Shown here piece after piece: positions 2,982 to 17,816 of a stretch of DNA of 32,000 bases. Where the stretch lies: assembly GCF_000017305.1 (NCBI RefSeq), contig NC_009664.2, positions 4,729,184 to 4,761,183 of the forward strand, given 5' to 3'. Under the pieces are notes generated by a model, which was given only the letters and a program-made list of their open reading frames with translations, was not told the DNA's origin and searched no databases. Positions within the stretch are counted from its first letter, which is position 1, and every line of letters starts with the position of its first letter. This stretch comes from Kineococcus radiotolerans SRS30216 = ATCC BAA-149. Lineage in GTDB: Bacteria; Actinomycetota; Actinomycetes; Actinomycetales; Kineococcaceae. A program made the position numbers and the translations under genes.

Positions 2982-3950
2982 TCAACGGCGGCCCCTGCTC
3001 AGCTTGTGCTGCGTCTCAGGCGCACCCCGCCGGAGCCCATCCTGTTGGCCTCGTCGCTGCTGAATCTTTAACCGCTGGTGCTGCTCGCGGCGCTCACAGA
3101 AGGTCGCCAGGTGCTCGGCGGCCTTGGCCGCGGTGTCCAGCGGCAGGGCCTGGTCAGGACTCGTCGGGCCGGCCATGACCGGTCGCCAGGTGTCGCTGTC
3201 ACGGAAAGCGACGATGAGGACGCCGTCGCGGTCGACGACCTGGCTGTGGAGGTTGGGGGCGCCGGGTCCGGCGAGGACGAGGACGGGCCGGACGGGCGTG
3301 TGGATGCCGTGGCTGCGCAGCAGGGCTGCGGTCTTGGTGGCGCCTTGGCGGGCTTGGCGGAGCTTGGACTCCAAGCCGTAGGTGTCTTCCAGGCTCTGCT
3401 GGCGGCTGAAGAGGGCTTTGACTTCGAGGGCGAAGCAGCCTTTGGGGGCCAGGACGACGTGGTCGACGTCGAAGTGCTCGAAGGGGATCGCGCTGATGAC
3501 GCCGTACACGCCGTCGGTGGTGCGCAGCTCGTCCCCGACGTCGCCCTCGACGCCGCGGCCGAGCCGGGCCAGGAGGCTGCCGTCGGCCAGGGCAAGGAAG
3601 CCGGCCCAGCCGACGGCGGCGGCGCCGAGGAAGACGCCGAGGATGCCGGCCTGCAGCTGCGGGTGCTCCCGGGCGCCGTAGCTGAAGGAGACAGCCGCGA
3701 GAGCGAAGGCGGCGAGGAGCTTGGTGAGGTCACGCCAGTTAGCGCGCAGCAGGTGCCGGCGGCGTGCGCGGAGGTCCTGCTCGAGCCAGGAGGCGCGTCG
3801 GCGTCGGTAGCGAGGGTAGGGCAGGCGCAGCTGGCCGTATCCGCGGCGATCACGCAGCCATCTCACCAGCGCAGCATCGACGTGGTGCGGGCTGTGCTTG
3901 AGGTCTACACCCTCACCCGCGTCGGTCTCTCGTCCCCGCTGGTCTTTCAC
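2982..3950 (-). CDS. membrane-anchored NERD (nuclease-related domain) protein
   Basis: 322-aa ORF with GTG start. Two hydrophobic helices (LLAAFALAAVSFSY and ILGVFLGAAAVGWAGFLAL) are followed by a NERD-like core: GVEGDVGDELRTTDGVYGVISAIPFEHFDVDHVVLAPKGCFALEVKALFS...RPVLVLAG. It is transcribed divergently from the SIR2-like gene across a 95-bp gap. Confidence 0.75.
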   Translation of the reverse strand: MKDQRGRETDAGEGVDLKHSPHHVDAALVRWLRDRRGYGQLRLPYPRYRRRRASWLEQDLRARRRHLLRANWRDLTKLLAAFALAAVSFSYGAREHPQLQAGILGVFLGAAAVGWAGFLALADGSLLARLGRGVEGDVGDELRTTDGVYGVISAIPFEHFDVDHVVLAPKGCFALEVKALFSRQQSLEDTYGLESKLRQARQGATKTAALLRSHGIHTPVRPVLVLAGPGAPNLHSQVVDRDGVLIVAFRDSDTWRPVMAGPTSPDQALPLDTAAKAAEHLATFCERREQHQRLKIQQRRGQQDGLRRGAPETQHKLSRGRR

Positions 3951-4045
3951 CTACCCGGGACCTCTCGCCCGCACTGGCGCTCCGCCCCTGTACAGCGCTC
4001 GCGACAGGACGCAAACGCCCGTAGAAGTCAGCCCGTTGGGACAAG

Positions 4046-5845
4046 ATGAGACGCGTGGATGCTCATGTCTCCCTGGCCTTGGCCTTGCAGTCCGGCCCCG
4101 GCACGGTCGCTGCCTTGCTCGGGGCCGGTGCGTCGGCGTCGGCGGGGCTGCCCACGGCGTGGGAGGTGCGGCAGGAGCTGATCCGCCGGGCCGCGCTCGC
4201 TGCCGGTGAGGCGGTGCCGACCGACCCCGAAGCATGGTGGTCTGATCGCGGTGGCAGCGCAGGCTACGACGGGCTGCTGGCGGAGCTGGCGCCCACGCCG
4301 GCGGGGCGGCGCGACTTGCTGCGGGGCTTCTTCGAGCCCACCGAGGACGGGCGCGAACGGGGGGAGAAGCGTCCCGGTGCGGTGCACCACGCGCTGGCCC
4401 AGCTGGTGGTCACTGGCGCGGTGCGGGTGGTACTGACGTTGAACTTCGACCGCCTCATCGAGACCGCGCTGCGCGAGGCGGGTATCGAGCCGGTCGTCAT
4501 CGACTCTCCGGCCGCGGTGGAGGGGATGGAACCGCTGCAGCACCAGCGAGCGGTGGTGGTGCACCTGCACGGTGACTACCTCTCACCCGCGACGCTGAAC
4601 ACCCCCGAGGAGCTCAATACCTACCCGGCTGCGCTCAACGCCTTGATCGATGAGGTCTTCGACCGTTATGGCCTGCTCGTCATCGGCTGGTCAGCGACGT
4701 GGGACAACGCCCTCCGAGCGCGCCTGCAGGCCGCCCGCAGCCCCCGCTACGGCACCTGGTGGATCGACCAGTTCCCCCTAAGCGGGCACGCCCAGGACCT
4801 GGCCAGCGCCCGTCGGGCCGCGGTGGCTATCGCAGATGCGGGGGTAGAGCTGGCGCGGGTGGTCGACGCGCTGCAGGCGCTCGCGGAACAGCGCCTGCAG
4901 GATCCCGTGGGGCCGCCCGCGGCTGTGGCCTTCGCCAAGCGAGCCCTGGCCGGGGCGAATGTGGCCATTGGTTTGCATGACACCCTCAGCCGGGAGACCG
5001 ACCGGGTAGCGAACCTCGACGCTGTCCGCTCAAATGAGTTCAACGTGGGCGGTAATCAGCTGGCGGCCGTGTACGCCCGTCGTCGGGATCAGATTCTCGC
5101 CGGCACCGCCACGTTAAGCGCGCTGGTGGCTACCAGCGCTTACTGGGGAAATGAGCGCACCGATGCTTGGTGGTTACCCACCATCACCCGCTCGGTGCCA
5201 CGCGAGATCGTCGGTGGACTCACGCCGTTGATCGGCCTGCGTTTGGGAGTGGCGACGCTGCTGACCCACGCCGCCGGCATCGCTGCCACCGCCGTCCGTC
5301 GCGACGAGCTGGTTGCCCACTTGGCCGCCGGTAACCGCCTCACGTGGAATGACCAAATCCTAGAGGCGGCTGCGGTGCTGACCCCGGCGGTGTTGTGGGC
5401 AGAAGACGGCGCCGACGCCGAACTGCGCCTGCGAGAGTACTTGCGGCCGCTGCTGCAGAACCACCTCGCCCTCGGCGCCGCCGGGTATGAGCACGCGTGG
5501 GAGGACTGGGCCGCAGTGTGTTACCTCACCCGGCGGCAGGCGGGCACCACTGTGGCTGCTCCCCTCATGGTCATCGACGGCAACGAACCGTACGCGCCGG
5601 CCTTGAAGCGACTCAAAGGGCGAATCAAGGATTTACCGGAGAACACGGGCCTGTTCGCTCATGGCAATCTTGGCGGCAGGATCGGGCTGGCGTGGCCGCT
5701 CCTCGAACGCTACGAGAGTCAGGTCGCCGAGTGGGCCAAGGAGCTCGACCGGAACCACATTACTCCCTTTGGTGCCGGCATCGGAGGAGGCGTCATTCCT
5801 ACAGGGCCGCGTTACCCCGGTCGTCCTGATTTGGCGTGGCGCTGA
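4046..5845 (+). CDS. SIR2-like (SIR2_2 family) domain protein with an uncharacterised C-terminal helical domain of about 340 aa
   Basis: 599-aa ORF. N-terminal motifs: LLGAGASASAGLPTAWE (GAGxS...P.W), VVLTLNFDRLIE (Asn133, codon 4442-4444), VVVHLHGDY (His175, codon 4568-4570) and LLVIGWS. This order and spacing are typical of SIR2_2 NADase-type domains. No motif was recognised after about residue 250. Confidence 0.85.
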   Translation: MRRVDAHVSLALALQSGPGTVAALLGAGASASAGLPTAWEVRQELIRRAALAAGEAVPTDPEAWWSDRGGSAGYDGLLAELAPTPAGRRDLLRGFFEPTEDGRERGEKRPGAVHHALAQLVVTGAVRVVLTLNFDRLIETALREAGIEPVVIDSPAAVEGMEPLQHQRAVVVHLHGDYLSPATLNTPEELNTYPAALNALIDEVFDRYGLLVIGWSATWDNALRARLQAARSPRYGTWWIDQFPLSGHAQDLASARRAAVAIADAGVELARVVDALQALAEQRLQDPVGPPAAVAFAKRALAGANVAIGLHDTLSRETDRVANLDAVRSNEFNVGGNQLAAVYARRRDQILAGTATLSALVATSAYWGNERTDAWWLPTITRSVPREIVGGLTPLIGLRLGVATLLTHAAGIAATAVRRDELVAHLAAGNRLTWNDQILEAAAVLTPAVLWAEDGADAELRLREYLRPLLQNHLALGAAGYEHAWEDWAAVCYLTRRQAGTTVAAPLMVIDGNEPYAPALKRLKGRIKDLPENTGLFAHGNLGGRIGLAWPLLERYESQVAEWAKELDRNHITPFGAGIGGGVIPTGPRYPGRPDLAWR

Positions 5846-5981
5846 CGGCAGCAGGATCCGACCAGCCTGTGGAAATCAGCAGTGACTGACGCGGTGACTA
5901 GGGCCCAGATGCTGCGCCTGTAGTCGTCCTGATGCTCAACGCTTTGGTCTGCGGTGCACCTCGCACGACGTCGGACTCTGC

Positions 5982-8900
5982 TTACTGCTCCAGCTCCTTC
6001 TGGACAAGGATCGCCACTGACGACCCGCGTCGAGCGAGGTTGTCGACCAGTTGCAGTAGAGCCCGACGCAGCGATCCAGGTTCGTGCTCCTCCCGCACCA
6101 CATCTCGCAACCAGGTCTCGACGTATTGACTACGCCCCAGAATCCGAGACCCGTCGGGCCCAATCATCCTCAGGACGAGGCCCATTGCCTGGGGCGTACG
6201 TTCCAGCGCGTTGGCGGCCAGGCAGAGCAGCAGCCGGTCGACGAGGTCGGGGGACGGTTCGGACGCCGTCACCCAGCGATCGATCACGCGGGCGTACTCA
6301 TCTGGCGGCCAGGAGGCTCCGGACTGCGGTATCGGTAGTAGCGCTTCGTCCAGTTTACGTCTCGATGCTTCTTGTCGGGACCGGCGTGATGCTTCCCGTG
6401 CAGACCGCGCCGCGGGCAGCAGCTGATCAAGCAGTCTGGGCCAGACCTCGAACGACCGTTGTCCCTGCGTGGTCGACACGGCCTGGAGCGCGAGTGACTC
6501 AACGACAAAAGCCAGCTCCTCGGGGGCAGGGGTGAACGCCGTGAGATAGCGGTCGAGGATGTCGTCATTGCCGTCGAGCACCGCGGAGGAGACCCAGAGA
6601 CTGATCTGCTGACACCAGTAACGCGATCCGCGAAACCCGCGGGGGATCGCATCGGTGGGTCTACGCCTTAGGTCATACTCGACAAGCGCGGCCAGCGTTC
6701 GTCGAGCGCCCTCGCCGTGCGGGCAGTCACAACGTGCCGCCGCCCTTAGCCCGGGTAGCGCGTCCGCGGCGGTGTCGTAGTTCAACAGGGTGTCGGGATC
6801 GGTAAGCGCCTCCTCAAGAGGTTGCCTCAAACGCTTGCGGGGACGTTCTTGACCGTTCCACGGACCAACTCCTGCAGCCAGGATCCACTCAAGGTAGACG
6901 GCCATGGCGGTGGTGTGTCGTGCGTGAGTCCTCTGCTTCGTGCAGTCGGTGTCGTTCCACGCTGCGGCCAGCCCTTGCAGGAGGCGGTCTCTGACCTGGC
7001 GGGACTGACTGGCCGACAGCATCTCTACTATGGAGGTGAACTGATCCTTATCTTTGCCGCATGCATCCAGGAGGAGGTCGTCGCTGAGCAGGCGGGTGAT
7101 CGCGGTCGCGAGTGACCGGTCGGCGCCGAAGTCCCAACTCATGTCGCGGTCAGCGTCCGCGAATTTGGGCGTGTTCTCGTTCACGAGGCGGAGAAGTGTT
7201 TCCACGGCGGTGGGCAGCATCTGTAGTTCTGCCTCGCCGCCACGGGCCGCCTGCACTACGACGGCGGCCGCAGCCATCGCCAAGGTCTCGGCAGGGTTGA
7301 AGGCGATGCCGAGCTCGGAGTCGCTGCCCTCGTCGCGCACCATGGTCCCAACGGTGGTGTACAGCTGCGCTGCCGAGCCGGGCTGGTCTACTGATTCGTC
7401 GCGGATCTTCATGGCGGCGAACAGGTGGTTGGACAGCTCGAGACGGGTGCGGGCCTCACGGCCGCCGCCTTCTTCCAGTTGCTGTTGAAGATCAGAGGGC
7501 AACTCGACTGAAACCTCCAGCTGGTTCGGCTGGTTCTCGACCGGGTTGAGCCGGTAGTACTCGATCCGAAACATGGACGCGCGCCGCCGAGCGACGGCCA
7601 GCTCCGGGGAGCCCTCAGCGGGTTCACCTTGGCGAGCACGGGAGTTTGTCAAGAACCGTTCACCGGTCGCTTCGAGTTCACGGCGACGTTCCTCGTCGCC
7701 ACCTAGTACGAGCTGTATGACGACACCGTCGACCTGGGTGCTCAGCCCGGGCTCGCCGGTGTCCCACCCTGCACCACCACCGAAGATTCGGGACGTTTCC
7801 ATGTCCCAGACGTCCGGCTCTTGGAGGAAGGGGTCTAGCAGTGCACCGGAAGTCGATGGGTTAATGAGCAGGAGGGAGTACCCCACGGCTGCCAGTGCCG
7901 GACTCACACCTGCGAGCAGGACATCGTCCAGGATTTGTTCTAGAGGCCGCTTGCTCACCTGTGCAACTGCCCATCGGCGCAGCGCCATTAGAGCCGACAT
8001 GGCCGGGTAGGGCCCGGTACCAGCCCGCTGGTACCACCCCCAGGCAGAAGCGGGACCGCGATAGGTGCGGGCGTTCGACCAGTGCGGGAAGGTGAGTTCG
8101 AGAGCCAGTGGACGCTGCGGCCTGGAGAACGAAGCTTCTTCGCGTCCTCGGTGCCGGGTGGCGGCATCGACGACGGCACCCACCAGCCTCAGACCGTGGG
8201 CAGGTGAGTGGTCCAACAGGACAGCGAAGGGCCCCCAGTCGGGCCCAGTCAAACCGAAACCGCGGCGGCGTGCGGTGCGGTGCGAGTGGTCGCGGATACC
8301 GTCCTCGTCGCCTGGAACGCCCAGCCGTCGGCGGCCTCGCAGGGTGCGGCGCGGGGTCATCGGGAGCCGGCCTCGTGCACCATCCATGTCCAGCGGCCAG
8401 TCGAGGTAGTAGCAGCCAGCCAGTTCCAAGAGCAGATCGGGGTTGTCTCGGGCCAACGCGGCTGCAACGTCCGGATCTTCGATGATTGCTTCGAGGTCGT
8501 CGCCGCGTTCGACAGCTCGCTCGAGAAGCGGGCTGGCTTCGGCGGGGAGGTTCTGGCCGAGCAAGCCGAGGACGGCAAGGGCGGACTCGTAACGCTGCCC
8601 ATACGTGGCATCCCCAGCCCAGCTGACCGTCGCGGCGCACAACCGCGATGAGTCGATGCCGAAGTCGCCCGGCCGCAGGCGGTGGAGTTCCAGACTGCGG
8701 AGCCATCGTTCCGTCAGCAACACGGCGGACGCTGCCAACCCTTCCGACAACTCCGCGGCGGTAGCGATCAGCAGTCCGATCACCGGGGCAGCCAGCACGC
8801 TGTTGAGAACGAGACTGGCACCATCGAGCGTCATGCGGTCGGGCGTCGTACGGTCGGTCGTCGCGAAACGAGTCGTCACCGCGATGAGCCGCGCGACATC

Positions 8901-10988
8901 CAAAAGACGCGGTTGTCCGGCGGTGTTGGGGACCAGCTCCTGTAGGTCGAGCCGCTGCAGACCGAGCCCCTGCAGGACAACCCCGGGGTCAGCCAAAGAC
9001 AAAGCCGACTCGTACGGGACGTCACTCCAGCGGTCGCCGTCGCGGGCCGCGAGCCGTTCACAGACTGACAGTTGCTGCTTCCAGACAGCGCGCAGCTCTG
9101 CCGGGTCGCTCGCTGCGGACAGGGTGCGTTGTCCGGCCAAGCGGACTGCTCGCAACAGCGGACGAGGGGAGTGAACCTGTTCCAAAAGCGCCGGATCGTC
9201 GGCCAGGACCATGGCTGCTGCGTAGTCGGCCAGGACGTCGTGGGAAAACCGGTACGTCCGGCCGTGGCGCGTCAGGACGTCGTCGCTGACGAGGCCGCCC
9301 ACTGCGGGGCCAGGAACCGTTGACAGGGATGTGCTGCCCGTGCCGGTGATGACGGCTTCCGCCGCCTCCTCCCAGGCGCGGCTTCGCTCATGGGGTAATC
9401 CCTGCCCTGGACGCATCCCCTCGGAGCGTCGGACGACCGTGTTGTAGAAGAGGTCGAGGATGGTTTCCTCACCGATCGGGTCCTGCTCGGGCAGGGCACT
9501 GCCTGACCGGACGATGAGATCGACGAGGTACGGCCGGCGCAGGAGCTGATTACTGCGAGGGTGACGCAGAAGAGGCGCCAGGAGAGGGAAGGCCTGCTCC
9601 ACCTCGTTCATCTCGTCATCGGTGAGGTCGCCCACCGGCACGTGTGAAGTCAATCGATCACCGAGATGATGGGTCAGAGGGTCGGCAGCTTCTCGGCGGC
9701 AGGTGATGACGACGGTCCATGGCGGACTCTTCCGTCCGCCCGTGGGTGCCGCGTCCAGCAGGAACTCCAGCAGCCGTCCTGCGTCGGCCAGGGCGTTCTC
9801 GGCCCCGTCAATGAGCAGGATGCGAGACCCCGCGGTGGGTGCGGCTGCCAGCGCTGTGGGCAGGTGGGGGATACCCAGCTCGTCCTGAAGGCTGGTGGGA
9901 CTGTCGCCGCCTCGCACAGCAAGATTGATGGCCACCACCGTCGCGTTCTCGCCCTGCTCTTGCACACAGCGACGAGCCAGGACCGATTTACCCACACCGG
10001 CGCTTCCTGAGATCAGCACCAGCCCACCGCCCGCAACAGCCCGGTCGATCTGATCGACAACGCGTGCGCGTTCCAGGCGCAGGGTCCCGCCGATCTGGTC
10101 GACGGTGCGTGCCAGCTCATCCGCCGACGCGGTGAGGACACGCTCGAGCTCGTGCCTGTGCTGGGGAGCGGTGTCCAGGGCGACACCTGCGGCCAGGAGG
10201 GCGGCCCGGAGCATGGGCACGTTGATGACGCCCGCGTTCGGTCCCCAGCCTTCAGCCAGCGTACGCAGCTGCGCGAAGAGCGAGCGCACCGACGGCGCCG
10301 CGGAGGGGAAGACCTGCGCGAGGCGGCTCAAAGTGTCAAGGAAGTCGCGCCCGTCCTCACCGATCTCCATGATCCACACGTGCAGATGACGCAGAAGGTC
10401 GTGGACGAGCCGGTCCACCCCCAGCTCGTCGACCTCTAGGCCCTGTCCGGTGCTTTCCTGGTCGCCTCGTTCGGCTAGGACCCGCTCGACGGCGGCCTTG
10501 ACGTGGTCGTACCGACCACGGACCTCGGCGCTCATCGCTCCCGGCATGAGCAGCCCGAGGAAGGTGTCAACGCTGGTATGAGCCCGGGCGATGACGGTCA
10601 ACCGGTGCAGCTCTTCCAGCTGGGCCCTCGGGCCGCCGGCGGCGAGGCCTAGACGGAGGCTGCCTGCGTCCAGCTCGTCGTGTCGGGTGGACAGCTCCTG
10701 CAGACACTGTCCCAAGACGTCGAGGAACGCGCGGTCTGAGGGGGTGGGAGCCGCCCGGCGCTTGACCTGGTAGTCGATGCTCGATGGCGATGCGCCCTGA
10801 TTGGAGGTCAGGACCAGGTCGTCCAGAGCGTGGCCTGCTACGCGCCGCTGTAGGGCGATGCTGGTGGGGGCTGTGTCCAGCCCTGGCATCAAGTCCCCGG
10901 TCAGCAACCGTCCCAGCGCGAGTGCGGCGAGGGTGTACTCCTCGATCGTGCCCGCCCCGCCGGTTGCCTCAGGCGACACCTGTGCCAC
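5982..10988 (-). CDS. giant NACHT/STAND-like P-loop NTPase with an N-terminal Cap4/DUF4297-like (PD-(D/E)xK-type) module and a helical C-terminal region of about 1200 aa
   Basis: The uninterrupted ORF spans 5982..11231 (1749 aa). Walker A GSAGVGKS lies at 9984-10007. Walker B ILLIDGAE lies at 9798-9821, followed by VVITCR (NACHT-like hhhTSR). N-terminal segment (10752-10961): GGAGTIEEYTLAALALGRLL...IALQRRVAGHALDDLVL...IDYQVKRR. I prefer the GTG start at 10986-10988 (VAQVSPEATGG...). Codons between 10989 and 11110 are rich in A/T-ending and AGA/AGG codons. Further upstream, the open frame shares third-codon positions with the opposite-strand ORF (a shadow). Alternative starts are ATG 11078, 11111 and 11231. 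The stop is TAA. Confidence 0.85.
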   Translation of the reverse strand: MAQVSPEATGGAGTIEEYTLAALALGRLLTGDLMPGLDTAPTSIALQRRVAGHALDDLVLTSNQGASPSSIDYQVKRRAAPTPSDRAFLDVLGQCLQELSTRHDELDAGSLRLGLAAGGPRAQLEELHRLTVIARAHTSVDTFLGLLMPGAMSAEVRGRYDHVKAAVERVLAERGDQESTGQGLEVDELGVDRLVHDLLRHLHVWIMEIGEDGRDFLDTLSRLAQVFPSAAPSVRSLFAQLRTLAEGWGPNAGVINVPMLRAALLAAGVALDTAPQHRHELERVLTASADELARTVDQIGGTLRLERARVVDQIDRAVAGGGLVLISGSAGVGKSVLARRCVQEQGENATVVAINLAVRGGDSPTSLQDELGIPHLPTALAAAPTAGSRILLIDGAENALADAGRLLEFLLDAAPTGGRKSPPWTVVITCRREAADPLTHHLGDRLTSHVPVGDLTDDEMNEVEQAFPLLAPLLRHPRSNQLLRRPYLVDLIVRSGSALPEQDPIGEETILDLFYNTVVRRSEGMRPGQGLPHERSRAWEEAAEAVITGTGSTSLSTVPGPAVGGLVSDDVLTRHGRTYRFSHDVLADYAAAMVLADDPALLEQVHSPRPLLRAVRLAGQRTLSAASDPAELRAVWKQQLSVCERLAARDGDRWSDVPYESALSLADPGVVLQGLGLQRLDLQELVPNTAGQPRLLDVARLIAVTTRFATTDRTTPDRMTLDGASLVLNSVLAAPVIGLLIATAAELSEGLAASAVLLTERWLRSLELHRLRPGDFGIDSSRLCAATVSWAGDATYGQRYESALAVLGLLGQNLPAEASPLLERAVERGDDLEAIIEDPDVAAALARDNPDLLLELAGCYYLDWPLDMDGARGRLPMTPRRTLRGRRRLGVPGDEDGIRDHSHRTARRRGFGLTGPDWGPFAVLLDHSPAHGLRLVGAVVDAATRHRGREEASFSRPQRPLALELTFPHWSNARTYRGPASAWGWYQRAGTGPYPAMSALMALRRWAVAQVSKRPLEQILDDVLLAGVSPALAAVGYSLLLINPSTSGALLDPFLQEPDVWDMETSRIFGGGAGWDTGEPGLSTQVDGVVIQLVLGGDEERRRELEATGERFLTNSRARQGEPAEGSPELAVARRRASMFRIEYYRLNPVENQPNQLEVSVELPSDLQQQLEEGGGREARTRLELSNHLFAAMKIRDESVDQPGSAAQLYTTVGTMVRDEGSDSELGIAFNPAETLAMAAAAVVVQAARGGEAELQMLPTAVETLLRLVNENTPKFADADRDMSWDFGADRSLATAITRLLSDDLLLDACGKDKDQFTSIVEMLSASQSRQVRDRLLQGLAAAWNDTDCTKQRTHARHTTAMAVYLEWILAAGVGPWNGQERPRKRLRQPLEEALTDPDTLLNYDTAADALPGLRAAARCDCPHGEGARRTLAALVEYDLRRRPTDAIPRGFRGSRYWCQQISLWVSSAVLDGNDDILDRYLTAFTPAPEELAFVVESLALQAVSTTQGQRSFEVWPRLLDQLLPAARSAREASRRSRQEASRRKLDEALLPIPQSGASWPPDEYARVIDRWVTASEPSPDLVDRLLLCLAANALERTPQAMGLVLRMIGPDGSRILGRSQYVETWLRDVVREEHEPGSLRRALLQLVDNLARRGSSVAILVQKELEQ

Positions 10989-11145
10989 ACCCACTCGCCC
11001 CCCGTGAACGACCACATGACCTGCTCTGATCGGCGACCCGTCCGATGGGGCGGGCCGCCAAGCCCTACGACAGATCATCTTGCCCGAGGGGCTCCGTCTT
11101 GACGCCCTCATCCCAGATACGTCCACGATCGACGCGGTTGTCTCG

Positions 11146-12060
11146 ATGAGCGCGCCCAACGGCACGAGCAGGCCGCCGTGTGGGCGGTGGGGGACCGCTA
11201 CGCCGCGGCGCGCGGCATCGCGGACGGGCATCCCGCTGGGTCAGCTGATCCTGGTCGGGCACCACAGCGAGGGCCGGGCCCGGCGAGACGCGGCCCGGAT
11301 GGGCGCGCACATGGATGCCAGCGTGGCCCACACCGACGCAGCCGAGGAGGCGCGGCGGGCGGCGCGGATCGCGAAGGCGGCCACCGATGCCCGCTACAAC
11401 CCGGTGACGGTGGCGAAGCGAGTGGAGCGGTTGACCCCCAGGGTGGGGGCCGAGGAGAAGGCGCTCGCGCACTGCGAGCGCGCGGTCGCTGCCGGGCAGG
11501 CCGCTGCTGCGGCCCTGAGCGCGGTTGGCGGCCCGGACTCAGACCTGGATCGGGGGCAGGTGCAGCCCGACCGTCCTCGGGCTGGGGAGAGCGCGCAGGG
11601 GGCCGCGGTGCGGTATGGGCTGAACATGGCCGCCCACGCGGCCGCAGTCGCTGAGCGGTTGCAGGCGCACCGTGCCGACCTGGCCCACTGGCAGGCGGTG
11701 CGTGCCCGGCAGGTCGCGGATGGGACGGCCACCGGCGTCGGCCGGCACAACGTGGCGGCCGGGGATCAGGTGCGGGTGCGTGGGCACTGCTACGAGGTGG
11801 TGCGGGCGAACGCGAAGACGGTGACGGTGCTCGGCATGTTCGGGCCCCGCGCGACCCTGTGGCAGGAGGTCCAGGAGCACCGGCGGGGAGCAGGCGGGAC
11901 CGGTGACCAGGCGAGGGCGGGGGGGGTGACTCAACCCCTGTTCACGGCCCGTCAACCTCCGGCCGCGTCGGGGCCGGGCGTCCCGGCCGCGCAGTCGTGG
12001 CCCTGTGACGATCCAAATTTCTTCGGTACCTCCCGCGCCTGCGCATCTGCGGGACCCTGA
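11146..12060 (+). CDS. DUF3560-like protein (mobile-element/plasmid-associated family), apparently lacking the usual N-terminal part
   Basis: Matches my recollection of DUF3560 proteins: GQLILVGHHSEGRARRDAARM...ARYNPVTVAKRVERL...WQAVRARQVADGTATGVGRHNVAAGDQVRVRGHCYEVVRANAKTVTVLG. ATG 11146 is chosen. The track ORF begins at 11080, but that stretch is antisense-shadowed by the giant ORF. The start is uncertain. Confidence 0.55.
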   Translation: MSAPNGTSRPPCGRWGTATPRRAASRTGIPLGQLILVGHHSEGRARRDAARMGAHMDASVAHTDAAEEARRAARIAKAATDARYNPVTVAKRVERLTPRVGAEEKALAHCERAVAAGQAAAAALSAVGGPDSDLDRGQVQPDRPRAGESAQGAAVRYGLNMAAHAAAVAERLQAHRADLAHWQAVRARQVADGTATGVGRHNVAAGDQVRVRGHCYEVVRANAKTVTVLGMFGPRATLWQEVQEHRRGAGGTGDQARAGGVTQPLFTARQPPAASGPGVPAAQSWPCDDPNFFGTSRACASAGP

Positions 12061-12094
12061 GACAAACGGGCGGGCCGCGTGGAATTGTGACCGA

Positions 12095-12679
12095 GTGCAA
12101 CAGCTCATCACTGCGCCCTTCTTCCGGCGACTGGCCGCCCGGCTCATCGACCTCGGCTTCGCCCTGGTCCTGACCTTCGCCCTGGCCGTGGTCGTGGGCC
12201 TGATCTCAGGTCTCGTGACCGCCTTCAGCGGTGGCCTCGACGAGGATGGACTGGCGATCGCGCTGCTGGTCTGGCTCTGCTACTTCCTGGCCTACGTCGC
12301 GCTGGAGTGGTTTCTGGTGGTCAACCGCGGCGGGCAGACGCTGGGCAAGGGGCTGATGGGCATCAGGGTGGTCCGTGCATCGGGCACCGGCGTCGCCCCC
12401 GCTTCGTCCTTCGTTCGCCTTTTCGTGTTCTTCATCCCGTTCTTCTTCGCCTCGCAGGCTGGGGGGTCGACGTCGGCCGGGTGGGAGGCGCTGGCCACTA
12501 TCGGGTTCTTGTGGTCCACAGCCACACTGATCATGGTGTGCATCCGGCCAGGCGGTCGGCGTGGGGTTCACGACTACTTGTCGGGCACTCGGGTCGTGCT
12601 CGCTCCGAGGCGCAAAGTGAACCTGCGGAAGGACATTCCGATGATGGTGCCTAGGCGGGTTGACCTCACCAAGCGCTGA
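12095..12679 (+). CDS. RDD family membrane protein
   Basis: RRLAARLIDLGFALVLTFALAVVVGL..., then LEWFLVVNRGGQTLGKGLMGIRVV and RRGVHDYLSGTRVV, with 3-4 hydrophobic helices. The track ORF starts at GTG 12005, but codons 12005-12094 are A/T3-rich (CAA ATT TCT GTA CCT). In-frame GTG 12095 is therefore preferred. The start is uncertain. Confidence 0.75.
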   Translation: MQQLITAPFFRRLAARLIDLGFALVLTFALAVVVGLISGLVTAFSGGLDEDGLAIALLVWLCYFLAYVALEWFLVVNRGGQTLGKGLMGIRVVRASGTGVAPASSFVRLFVFFIPFFFASQAGGSTSAGWEALATIGFLWSTATLIMVCIRPGGRRGVHDYLSGTRVVLAPRRKVNLRKDIPMMVPRRVDLTKR

Positions 12680-13171
12680 CCGCGAAGTGTCACCATTCCC
12701 TCGACCAGTAGCGCCGTGGCTTGGTCGTCGTGCGGACGGTGGCGCCGCGGCTGGGATTGCAGGTGGTGAGGAGGAGCTGGTCGGCTTGGGTTCCGCCATG
12801 TGCTCGGGCGAGGGTGTGGTCGGCCTTAAGGGGCATGTGGTCGACCTTGAGGGCAACGTCGCGGAACATCTGCGGTCCCTGACCGACGGGAGGCTGTCGG
12901 ACGCGCGTTCAGATGCCATCGGTCACGGGGCGGTCGGGTCGACGTGTTCGACGACGGCGCCCAGGAGGACGCCGACAGCCTGGACGAGGGGGTCCAGGGC
13001 ATTCGCGGCGTCGGTGGGGTGACGGTGCCGCTCAGGACGCCCAGGAGGAAGAAGGGCCCGGCGGCCGCGACGGGTACCGCGAGGACGGCGACGACGCGCA
13101 GCAGGGCGGCGAGTGAGACCTGCCGAGCGGGCTGTGTCGGGTTGTGTCGGGCTTCGTTGTAGTGATGCGGG

Positions 13172-13531
13172 TCAGGCGGCGTGGGCTTCGCGGTCGTAGA
13201 CGAGGGTGGCGGCTTGGTAGAGGGGGGCGAGGTCGAGGTCGCAGGTGTGGCAGAGGTGGTGCAGGTCGCTGAGCAGTTCGATGAGGGCTTGCTGCATGTC
13301 CTCGGCGTGGCTGCCGCTGGCGCGGGTGTGGTGGTGGAGGGCTTGGGCGGCGTAAGCGGCGCGATGGGCGTTGGTGTGGCGGGCTCGGGCGGCGCGGGTG
13401 GCGGGGTCTTCACCGTCGGGTGCGGCGCTGCTGAGGGCGGTGACGCTGGCGCTGGCGTGAGCGTTGGTGCCGGCGCGGGTGCTGGCGCTGGTGTCGGCGC
13501 TCGCGGGTTGGTGGGTGGGGGTCTGGGTCAT
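13172..13531 (-). CDS. hypothetical small protein (Ala/Thr/His-rich N-terminus, helical C-terminus)
   Basis: Internal ATG at 13529-13531 (MTQTPTHQPASAD...) is preceded by AAGGAC. The C-terminal AEDMQQALIELLSDLHHLCHTCDLDLAPLYQAATLVYDRE resembles small helical proteins found in actinobacterial phage/ICE regions. No family was assigned. Confidence 0.45.
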   Translation of the reverse strand: MTQTPTHQPASADTSASTRAGTNAHASASVTALSSAAPDGEDPATRAARARHTNAHRAAYAAQALHHHTRASGSHAEDMQQALIELLSDLHHLCHTCDLDLAPLYQAATLVYDREAHAA

Positions 13532-13782
13532 GGCGGGTCCTTGAGTGGGTAGTCCGGGGGTGGGAGCCCAGGGGTGGAGTGCAGTGAGGGTGCTACGGGG
13601 AGGTGCTGGCGGCCCTGCTGCCCTTGTGAGCCACGGCTGGGGAGCCGGGCCCATGAGCCGTATCTGCGGGGTTGGTGCTCTGCTGCCCGTGGCGGATCTG
13701 GTGAGGCGGCCTGTGGGGCGGCGGGGAAGTGGTGCTGCTCGCCAGAGCGGGTGCTCGAGCCGGGCTGTGCTGGGCCGGTCTG

Positions 13783-14340
13783 TCAGCTGGCGGGGTGCTG
13801 GGTGGGATGGGTGACGATGAGGGTGAGGTGGGGATCGCTACTGCGGGGTCCTTGGACGGCAGCGTCAGCGGTGGCGGTGGCCTCACGGATGGGCGCGGGC
13901 ACCAGGTGCAGCCCTTGCTGCGGCTTGGACTGCGGCTCCTGGTGCTGGTGCTGGTGCTGCTGGGCTGGGGGGCGGGCGAGGCCGGCGAGGTGACCGCTGC
14001 CGGCGGGTGATCCGGTCCCGGACGGGGGGAGGGGCTCGCTGATGAGTCTGATCACCGGCGCGGAAGGCTGGGCGGTGGTGGAGGCGCTGCGGTGGGCGGC
14101 CTGCAGATGAGCGGCGCGTAGCTGGATGTCCTGCTGCGCGGCGTCGAGATGGGTAGCCGAGCCGGTGGCGGAGCTTGTGGCGTAGCCGGCGAGGTAGCCG
14201 AAGAGCGCGGCCGCGGGGACGGCGGCCAGGAGCAGGAGGGCGCGTTCGCTGGCCTTGGCCGGGGCGAGCAGGGGAATGAGGGTGAGGGTGGCGAAGGAGG
14301 TCAGGCCGACGGTGGTGGCTCGACGTGTGTTGATGTGCAT
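13783..14340 (-). CDS. hypothetical membrane protein
   Basis: ATG at 14338-14340 (MHINTRRATTVGLTSFATLTLIPLLAPA...) with two hydrophobic helices, then a Gln/His/Pro-rich tail. The upstream part of the 266-aa track ORF is Pro/Thr/Arg-rich and unlikely to be coding. Confidence 0.4.
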   Translation of the reverse strand: MHINTRRATTVGLTSFATLTLIPLLAPAKASERALLLLAAVPAAALFGYLAGYATSSATGSATHLDAAQQDIQLRAAHLQAAHRSASTTAQPSAPVIRLISEPLPPSGTGSPAGSGHLAGLARPPAQQHQHQHQEPQSKPQQGLHLVPAPIREATATADAAVQGPRSSDPHLTLIVTHPTQHPAS

Positions 14341-14601
14341 GGTGATGCGGGGCACGTCGACGCTCCTGCCTGCTTCAGATGCCAGCTGACCCGTGTCTTT
14401 CAGTCCCGGTGAGCACTTCATTGGGCTGATGGGCTCTCGCGTTTCACTCTGGGCTGAGCCTGCCACACCGGTGCGCTGATGGCACGGGGTGTGGGGCGTG
14501 GAGAGCGTCGGGGTTGGGCCCCCCCCGGTACGTAAGGACATCCGTCGCGACATCGGCGAAGGCGCCGGCGTTGATCGGGCCATTGATCACGCCATCAGCG
14601 A

Positions 14602-15177
14602 TCACGTCGACCAGGGATCGCGTCCACCAGCTGTCGTGTCGATCACTGCGTCGCTGGCCCGCGGCCGGCTGATCTCGTCGCCGGTCTCGTCGCTGGCCGC
14701 TTGCCACCGTCCGGTGAGCTCCTCGCACGCTCGTGGACCCTTCCCGGTCGGCGCTGGCGGGCGGGGAGGTCGCGTCGGTGGGGCCTGCCGCCTGGGGCTG
14801 AGCTCCGCGGGGGTCAGTTGGGCGGCTTGGTAGGCGCGTAGGAGGGTGGGGCTGATGCGGCCGGTGGCGGTGACGCGGTGGCCGTGGGTGCGGGCCCAGG
14901 AGCGGATGATGCGGTGGTCAGGGGCCAGTGTGGTGCGCTTGCAGTTGTCGCGGTGCCCGATGGTCTGGGCTCCGGTGCGGCGGGCGTGTTGGATGAACAC
15001 GTCGAGGCTGGCGCGCAACTGGCGGGCGTGGTCGGCGTTGAGGTCGATCTCGTGAGCGTCGCCGTCGAGGGTGAAGGTGAGGCGTTCGGTGGCGGGGCTG
15101 CCGTCGATGTTGTCGCTCAGTTGGGTGGTGGTGCGGGTGGCCGTGGGGCATGGTGACAGACGCCCGGGCGCGGCCAT
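14602..15177 (-). CDS. lsr2: Lsr2-family nucleoid-associated protein (xenogeneic-silencer type) with N- and C-terminal extensions
   Basis: Dimerisation-domain match: LSDNIDGSPATERLTFTLDGDAHEIDLNADHARQLRASLDVFIQHARRTG. DNA-binding-domain match: DHRIIRSWARTHGHRVTATGRISPTLLRAYQAA. Both align residue by residue with mycobacterial Lsr2 as I remember it. Start is ATG 15175-15177 or 15184-15186. The ORF continues about 77 codons past the point where Lsr2 normally ends. Confidence 0.8.
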   Translation of the reverse strand: MAAPGRLSPCPTATRTTTQLSDNIDGSPATERLTFTLDGDAHEIDLNADHARQLRASLDVFIQHARRTGAQTIGHRDNCKRTTLAPDHRIIRSWARTHGHRVTATGRISPTLLRAYQAAQLTPAELSPRRQAPPTRPPRPPAPTGKGPRACEELTGRWQAASDETGDEISRPRASDAVIDTTAGGRDPWST

Positions 15178-15440
15178 GGGCCTCATTCAGGCCGAGAGCA
15201 ACCGCAACCTCAAATCACCGGCGGCCAATTACCCGGATTGAGTGACAATGAGCAGGAAGCGTCTGGTTCGTATCAGGTTGATACTGCTTCTTTCTCCGCT
15301 GGATGCTGATGCTTACTAGTGGAGGAGGGGGTGGTGGAGAACGGGTTCGCGTCGAGGGTTCGCGGGAAAGGGCGGTACCGGTTCGTTCCGCCGCGGGCCT
15401 CAGGTTCGGTGTTCACGGTGAGGACCTGACGTGTGCGGCC

Positions 15441-17678: not shown

Positions 17679-17780
17679 ATACCTGGCCCCGGAGCGTTGG
17701 GGTGAGCCGTCGCGCGTCGACGACCGGTTCGGGGTCAGCCTCGGGCTTTCAGCCCTTTCAAGCTTCCCGTCCTTTCGGGG

Positions 17781-17816
17781 CAAGGCGCGCAAGGCGCGCA
17801 AGGCGCGCAAGGCGGC
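17781..17816. repeat. 9-bp tandem repeat CAAGGCGCG x3 + CAAGGCGGC
   Basis: Read directly in the gap between the convergent CWB2 and lrgB genes. Confidence 0.9.

Follow-up and report, generated by a model that had tools for sequence, protein, structure and literature searches.

A catalogued SIR2-family gene and a giant Avs-like STAND NTPase gene as neighbours in a probable defence island of Kineococcus radiotolerans

Three large genes lie side by side in the chromosome of Kineococcus radiotolerans SRS30216, coding for a NERD-domain protein, a SIR2 protein and a giant P-loop NTPase, and the question they raise is whether they work together as one antiviral system or are independent genes sharing a neighbourhood. 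They fill positions 2,982 to 11,231 of a 32,000-nucleotide stretch of contig NC_009664.2 (4,729,184 to 4,761,183), which we call the window. An earlier note on this DNA had proposed that the block fits no described defence architecture, and had set out two alternatives: either the genes form a split sensor/effector system, or they are single-gene systems, independent of one another, in a small island. Its three large open reading frames (ORFs), 2982-3950 on the minus strand, 4046-5845 on the plus strand and 5982-11231 on the minus strand, were confirmed, as was the 136-bp gap between the two convergent ones. Our results favour the second of its alternatives over the first. We consider it probable, at about 0.72, that autonomous genes, separately acquired and acting independently, make up the block as a small defence island; the three genes add new members to known kinds and form no new architecture. 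What looked like a new three-gene architecture would then be an ordinary defence island, and a false lead is removed.

The SIR2 gene (4046..5845, plus strand) codes for 599 residues, the deposited protein, a 'SIR2 family protein' of 100% identity, having 596. It matches the PADLOC profile of the candidate family PDC-S65 (PDLC05061) with an E-value of 1.7e-141 and 471 bits, residues 3-559 aligning to positions 15-585 of a 592-position profile, while the SIR2-APAZ and ThsA models of the same library match far more weakly and over the domain only. SIR2_2 is found in Pfam at 1.8e-10, above its gathering score; this domain call had already been made for the gene, as had that of NERD for its neighbour, and both held. 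The protein has the length of PDC-S65 members (about 590-600 residues) and matches the profile over its full length, and like them it has no conserved partner in the 117 loci described below. Judged by its sequence, the gene is an already catalogued PDC-S65 member with nothing to set it apart. The 'S' of the family name we take to stand for single-gene. The earlier note had said that assignment of a gene to a named system by a defence library would speak against its proposal, and for the SIR2 gene such an assignment is what was found.

The protein's N-terminal part (about residues 1-285; 4046..4900, plus strand) is a SIR2 NADase-type domain. It carries a GAGAS motif (residues 26-30, 4121-4135), a TLNFD motif (residues 131-135, 4436-4450) and the predicted catalytic histidine, His175 (within 4565-4573). 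Across 52 aligned members of the family, T131, N133, F134, D135, H175 and G176 never vary, and conservation of G26, G28 and S30 is at least 90%. The AlphaFold (AF2) model of the protein has a predicted local distance difference test score (pLDDT) of 91.7, and its N-terminal half retrieved SPARSA SIR2 (2.8e-10), DSR2, ThsA and KomC in Foldseek, with a probability of 1.00 for SPARSA-SIR2, DSR2 and ThsA. The C-terminal half (about residues 290-599; 4913..5842, plus strand) is all-helical in the model and gave no match in a Pfam scan; we presume it to be a sensor or regulatory domain. Among plasmid relatives, the best-covering tblastn matches stop at query residue 486-488 and many cover the SIR2 domain only (to about 240). 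The family is widely spread, with 73 database relatives, 564 confirmed metagenome matches, 32 IMG/VR loci and copies on plasmids of actinobacteria, proteobacteria, Bacillus and haloarchaea; phage genomes gave one weak domain match, in a Haloferax virus.

The protein resembles DSR1 and DSR2 (10.1101/2021.12.14.472415; PMC10981675) in joining an N-terminal SIR2 NADase-type domain to a helical C-terminal region. DSR2 structures are retrieved with its SIR2 fold at about 4e-9, and the catalytic histidine and NAD-binding motifs are present. However, with 599 residues it is much shorter than those proteins (about 1000), the alignment is confined to the SIR2 domain (template modelling score about 0.35 over the query), and the DSR models in PADLOC give no match to it. 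By analogy with DSR1 and DSR2, the SIR2 protein would be a one-protein abortive-infection module in which the helical C-terminal half keeps the NADase inactive. Binding of a phage component by this half would lead to hydrolysis of NAD+, and the infected cell would cease to support phage growth. PDC-S65 is widespread, and this well-modelled member would be a suitable protein with which to begin testing the function of short DSR-like NADases.

The giant gene lies on the minus strand. Its maximal ORF of 1749 residues (to 11231) overshoots its homologues, which have 1599-1677 residues and whose alignment starts at VSPEATGG, that is, at GTG 10979. From this alignment, GTG 10979 is probably the true start, giving a gene of 5982..10979 and a protein of 1665 residues; the P-loop described before was confirmed (GSAGVGKS). 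The family is rare (25 database relatives), actinobacterial and Avs-like. In Pfam the protein has only sub-threshold P-loop matches (NACHT with an E-value of 0.08, AAA_16 below gathering), and members of its family match NACHT, nSTAND1/3/5 and NB-ARC weakly. A profile of the family had one significant match in the PDB, the ATPase region of Avs4 (8dgf_A, 9.5e-8). The structure model, which covers residues 1-1200 of the 1665 with a pLDDT of 83.5, shows three parts, namely a head (about residues 21-280), nucleotide-binding, helical and winged-helix domains (about 300-605), and then helical repeats. In Foldseek, Avs4 (8dgf) came first (5e-20, about 1240 aligned columns), followed by Avs3 (4.6e-11) and then NOD2, NLRP3 and NLRC4. 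We therefore assign the protein to the STAND type because its structure model matches; the label 'NACHT-like' used before finds a weak counterpart in the sequence, where NACHT stays at the E-value given above, and its STAND component is confirmed by the model.

The STAND NTPase module, with its nucleotide-binding, helical and winged-helix domains, corresponds to 9198..10115 (minus strand) and contains the Walker A motif at 9984-10007. This motif (GSAGVGKS), a Walker B motif (RILLIDGAE) and a sensor-1-like arginine in VVITCRR are conserved in the family. The C-terminal region (5985..9197, minus strand; about 1070 residues) is mostly helical, with repeats seen up to residue 1200, and gave no Pfam match in the window protein or in family members; we presume it to be the target-recognition sensor. 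The protein therefore conforms to the three-part build of antiviral STAND proteins, with an effector, a STAND NTPase and a C-terminal sensor of at least 400 residues, and this modularity fits the pattern of Avs proteins (PMC13581612). Since the SIR2 gene is already catalogued and the giant has the standard Avs build, the claim that the block fits no described architecture is unsupported.

The head (10200..10979, minus strand; 260 residues) is an effector-type domain, with a predicted PD-(D/E)xK-like core followed by a helical extension. In the model its elements run helix, three strands, helix, strand and then helices, an order that fits such a core. Its motifs are DD (10818-10823) and QVK (10761-10769), together with GGAGTIEEY, and 20 diverse family members all have E14, D53, D54, Q71 and K73. 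Relatives of the head form 450 clusters at 50% identity and occur alone (about 300 residues) or on bodies of about 600, 1100, 1650 and 2000 residues. The head aligns with the N-terminus of an Actinosynnema Avs2 (hhalign 91.6%, E-value 8e-7, with LDDxV and QxKR aligned), and by hhalign it is shared with PDC-M54A as well. It resembles the Cap4-type Q-x-K nucleases, and from the predicted core it is a putative PD-(D/E)xK-like nuclease. One relative on a plasmid, which is annotated as a trypsin-like serine protease, aligns with the body of the giant only (query residues 315-1405), with the head excluded, which suggests that effectors are swapped. The head is thus an unannotated but common module, which stands by itself as well as on Avs2, PDC-M54A and further bodies, and if it is a nuclease many proteins would be annotated at once.

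How close, then, is the giant to the named systems? Avs4 (8dgf) has the same order of parts, a nuclease-type head, a STAND ATPase and a long helical sensor, and a similar length (about 1580 residues against 1665). It differs from the giant in that identity is about 12%, the head is of another family and no similarity can be detected between the sensors, so we see no reason to expect that the giant recognizes portal proteins. The Avs2 of Actinosynnema shares the type of head but has an ATPase and a sensor of a different family, and the Avs2 models in PADLOC gave no match to the giant. PDC-M54A, of similar size (about 1640 residues), shares head and ATPase with it at the profile level over about 650 residues, but its C-terminal 1000 residues are unrelated to those of the giant, and PDC-M54 is listed as a multi-gene system whereas the giant family stands alone. 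The PADLOC match to PDC-M54A is weak and partial (1.7e-9; residues 275-475 against profile positions 190-392), and no homologue of its putative partner was found in the window, so we do not place the giant in PDC-M54. As the thresholds of both Avs4 and PDC-M54A were not reached, we file it as Avs-like and not as Avs4. In the mechanism we propose, the giant would be an Avs-type pattern-recognition receptor whose helical tail binds a conserved phage protein; its STAND ATPase would then oligomerise and bring the heads together, and the activated heads would most likely cut DNA. No copy of the giant was found in the phage genomes searched.

In order to see whether the neighbours belong together, we compared the loci of their relatives. 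The SIR2-family sample consists of 117 loci, 90 of them full length and 60 extending for 5.2 kb or more on one side, with 1.07 Mb of flanking sequence; a genome-contig scan with the single protein gave 2 loci, and the metagenome and IMG/VR scans used the family alignment. The giant-family sample has 8 independent loci, from Sphaerisporangium, Couchioplanes, Kitasatospora, Actinosynnema, Lentzea, two Streptomyces plasmids and one metagenome element. Neither the giant family of the window nor NERD was found in any of the 117 SIR2 loci, and neither the SIR2 family (tblastn and family hidden Markov model) nor NERD (tblastn) in any of the 8 giant loci. Co-localisation of the homologues, which the earlier note had put forward as a check of its proposal, is therefore absent. 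The closest SIR2 relative (Geodermatophilus, 64% identity) has no giant, the closest giant relatives (49-51% identity) have no SIR2 gene, and the one plasmid record that carries both families has them 675 kb apart.

The neighbours of the SIR2 family are heterogeneous, with no neighbour cluster in more than 8 of the 117 loci, and the large genes adjoining it include type I and type IIG restriction-modification genes, PDC-S37/Hhe, PDC-S06 and a CBASS-type endonuclease. Across the 8 giant loci, the adjoining genes include those of Avs2, Mrr-type and PIN-TPR proteins, integrases, recombinases and relaxases. Because linkage is not conserved and the neighbours vary, often being other defence genes, we favour independence of the SIR2 and giant genes.

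Some of these loci are worth describing in themselves. One neighbour cluster is common to eight SIR2 loci (L093, L095, L065, L067, L068, L057, L062 and L083), and the two members that were scanned (L067 and L093) code for subunits of type I restriction endonucleases. The one in L067 begins 60 bp beyond the end of the SIR2 gene, which may therefore be embedded in type I restriction-modification operons. In Actinosynnema (L006:10001-19776) and Lentzea (L127:10001-19883) the giant homologue is directly followed by a second protein of about 1600 residues. That of Actinosynnema is an Avs2 (PADLOC 9e-240) whose head matches the PDC-M54A head at 5e-35, and the Lentzea locus continues with Mrr_cat and DUF4365/PIN-TPR genes; these are STAND receptors stacked in one island. 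At a third locus (L129:5987-16143) a 50%-identical giant homologue is followed by genes for a Barstar-domain protein, a TrwC relaxase and a tyrosine integrase, apparently an integrative mobilisable element. Avs7 and Dsr1 are reported to share a sensor (PMC13581612). A sensor common to the SIR2 protein and the giant was considered and rejected, as their profiles share no domain (hhalign probability 0.14%).

Several observations weigh against an island of autonomous defence genes, or against parts of that view. The giant falls below all curated sequence cutoffs, with 26.2 bits against 1500 for the NCBIfam Avs4 model (NF041815), and the PADLOC Avs4 profile matches its ATPase only (6e-4). Its head had no meaningful match in Pfam, across 20 members, or in a profile search of the PDB, and the lysine of Q-x-K is absent from four distant family members. 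The sample of 8 giant-family loci is small. Literature searches for PDC-S65 returned no papers, and it is a candidate family. Finally, a tandem pair on a metagenome contig, described below, makes a loose functional link between the SIR2 and giant types conceivable. The NADase and nuclease activities, the triggers, the oligomerisation and the anti-phage effect given above are predictions from homology and structure prediction.

Among the other explanations, the one that survives best is that the genes have no part in immunity, the SIR2 protein being a deacylase or regulator, the giant an AfsR/MalT-like signalling or transcription-related ATPase, and NERD a housekeeping nuclease. Many STAND clades are not defensive (198 of 589 are classed as defence-associated; PMC13581612), and the NERD gene has a native composition and no match in the defence library. 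We nevertheless regard this explanation as unlikely. The SIR2 protein scores 15-21 bits with sirtuin (CobB-type) deacylase models, far below their cutoffs of 243-320, and matches structures of defence NADases instead, while Pfam scans of the giant and of its family gave no DNA-binding or regulator domain. In addition, the giant has an effector-like head in common with Avs2, and both families are patchy in distribution, being found on plasmids, in integrase-flanked islands and on IMG/VR viral contigs, and beside restriction-modification, Avs2 and other defence genes.

In a split system the giant STAND protein would sense the phage and activate the separate SIR2 NADase, with NERD perhaps as a third, membrane-bound partner. 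For Avs5, a fusion of SIR2 with a STAND NTPase is reported. In the window the SIR2 and giant genes are adjacent and both are compositionally atypical. On a metagenome contig (L013:1502-8379), moreover, a PDC-S65 gene (4.8e-173) is followed 158 bp downstream, on the same strand, by the gene of a 1640-residue PDC-M54A protein (2e-145), and this protein is a distant homologue of the giant over head and ATPase (hhalign 99.2%, residues 15-660). Apart from the window, however, this is the only SIR2 gene with a giant-type neighbour among the 117 loci, so that an Avs5-like SIR2-STAND unit finds its co-occurrence in 0 of 8 giant loci and in 1 of 117 SIR2 loci, there with a distant relative; in the window itself the two genes are separate and convergent, hence not co-transcribed. 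The SIR2 protein of the metagenome pair is only 41% identical to that of the window, whereas relatives at 64% identity lack a giant; the pair is thus not co-inherited. No PDC-S65 gene was found near the PDC-M54A relatives of Nonomuraea, Streptomyces glaucescens and Sphingobium, and the two adjacencies are not alike in orientation, which also speaks against a conserved pair. Furthermore, the giant already carries an effector-type head of its own, with conserved acidic and lysine residues, and NERD is missing from each of the 117 SIR2 loci as well as from every giant-family or PDC-M54A locus that was examined. We conclude that a split system is highly improbable.

A weaker form of the same idea would be a loose but recurrent partnership between PDC-S65 and PDC-M54A or giant-type genes, convergent in the window and tandem in the metagenome contig, in which a receptor with a nuclease head also licenses a separate NADase. 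If true, SIR2 and STAND would form a split system that has two effectors, and we give this idea a slightly smaller chance still. The simpler account of the two adjacencies is that two kinds of defence genes met twice in defence islands, and that they reflect a real partnership is very doubtful.

On Sphingobium plasmid pYGP1 (L126:5977-12206) a PDC-M54A-type gene overlaps, by 4 bp, a downstream gene for a cysteine-rich protein of 463 residues, which may be the PDC-M54B partner, although this is an assumption only; literature searches for PDC-M54 returned no papers. That the giant is likewise half of a two-gene PDC-M54 system, left inactive because its PDC-M54B partner is missing or unrecognised, would agree with its weak PADLOC match, its profile-level homology to a true PDC-M54A protein and the overlapping pYGP1 pair, but is scarcely credible, as neither the window nor any giant-family locus contains a homologue of the 463-residue protein, and giant-family genes stand alone in 8 independent loci, full length and with their motifs intact.

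If the block is an island of independently acting genes, the NERD gene would be the third of them, a separate nuclease-family protein that is probably membrane-tethered. The gene (2982..3866, minus strand) codes for 294 residues from GTG 3866, in agreement with a deposited protein of 294 residues (100% identity, start 3866), and its maximal ORF reaches 3950 and 322 residues. NERD (PF08378) is found at 2.1e-8, with 35.1 bits against a gathering score of 22.1, and its D...E-V-K motif is represented by FDVDH (3459-3473) and EVK (3417-3425), with an N-terminal hydrophobic segment preceding the domain. Hydropathy gives one clear stretch, at residues 73-94 (Kyte-Doolittle about 2.1), preceded by a less marked one; of the membrane anchor that had been proposed, one segment is therefore evident and a second is weaker, and on this hydropathy profile the protein is probably tethered to the membrane. 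There was no match in PADLOC, in NCBIfam or in the plasmid collection, and only 28 relatives were found. A 70%-identical homologue on a metagenome contig lies just after several genes bearing Qat-type domains (KAP_NTPase, QatB, TatD_DNase) and near a NACHT gene, not beside a SIR2 gene. A paralogue (P0100, plasmid pKRAD01), 88% identical, is present on a 182,572-bp contig of K. radiotolerans.

The composition of the three genes differs. The other 18 ORFs of the window have a mean GC content at third codon positions (GC3) of 0.858 (standard deviation 0.043), and rare codons make up roughly 1-2% of most of them. The giant has a GC3 of 0.755 (z = -2.4) with 4.9% rare codons, the SIR2 gene 0.81 (z = -1.1) with 5.2%, and the NERD gene 0.875 (z = +0.4) with 2.4%. 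Overall GC falls from about 0.71 to 0.64-0.68 across roughly 5000-10500. The unusual codon usage that had been ascribed to the whole block is therefore that of the giant, which is foreign in composition, and partly that of the SIR2 gene, whereas the NERD gene is native. The spread in GC3 (0.875, 0.81 and 0.755) suggests separate histories. The giant is also the only one of 21 tabulated ORFs to end in TAA, as had been remarked before.

The spacer between the divergent NERD and SIR2 genes (3867..4045) measures about 180 bp with the deposited NERD start at 3866, and the 95 bp reported before applies to the maximal ORFs. No sigma-70-like site was found in it by a promoter scan. The convergent spacer between the stop codons of the SIR2 and giant genes (5846..5981, 136 bp) contains no terminator in our scan; the two terminator-like sites detected (7153 and 8276) both lie inside the giant gene and are no excess over shuffled sequence. 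Rfam matched nothing in the window, including this spacer.

Genes for an extracytoplasmic function (ECF) sigma factor and a protein of the glyoxalase family flank the block on its left. On its right, 11080-15186 contains genes for DUF3560 and RDD proteins, two family-less ORFs and an Lsr2 gene of the xenogeneic-silencer type, with GC3 of 0.81-0.85; the DUF3560 and Lsr2 calls agree with those of the earlier note. Beyond Lsr2 follow a CWB2 wall protein, LrgAB, an ABC sugar transporter, malate synthase and an IclR regulator. Ten flanking ORFs had no PADLOC match, and the window contains no tRNA gene, no integrase and no convincing flanking direct or inverted repeat that would mark the borders of an island. 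On a Citricoccus plasmid (L010) an Lsr2 gene directly adjoins a SIR2 homologue.

Two tandem repeats were seen elsewhere in the window. At 1142-1245, five tandem 15-nt units (GGTCGGTGTCGGSGC) lie within a 357-residue ORF that overlaps the end of the ECF sigma gene, possibly coding for an anti-sigma factor with a repeated peptide. At 17780-17814, a 9-nt unit (GCAAGGCGC) is repeated perfectly in tandem, in about four copies, just downstream of the gene for the CWB2/NHL wall protein.

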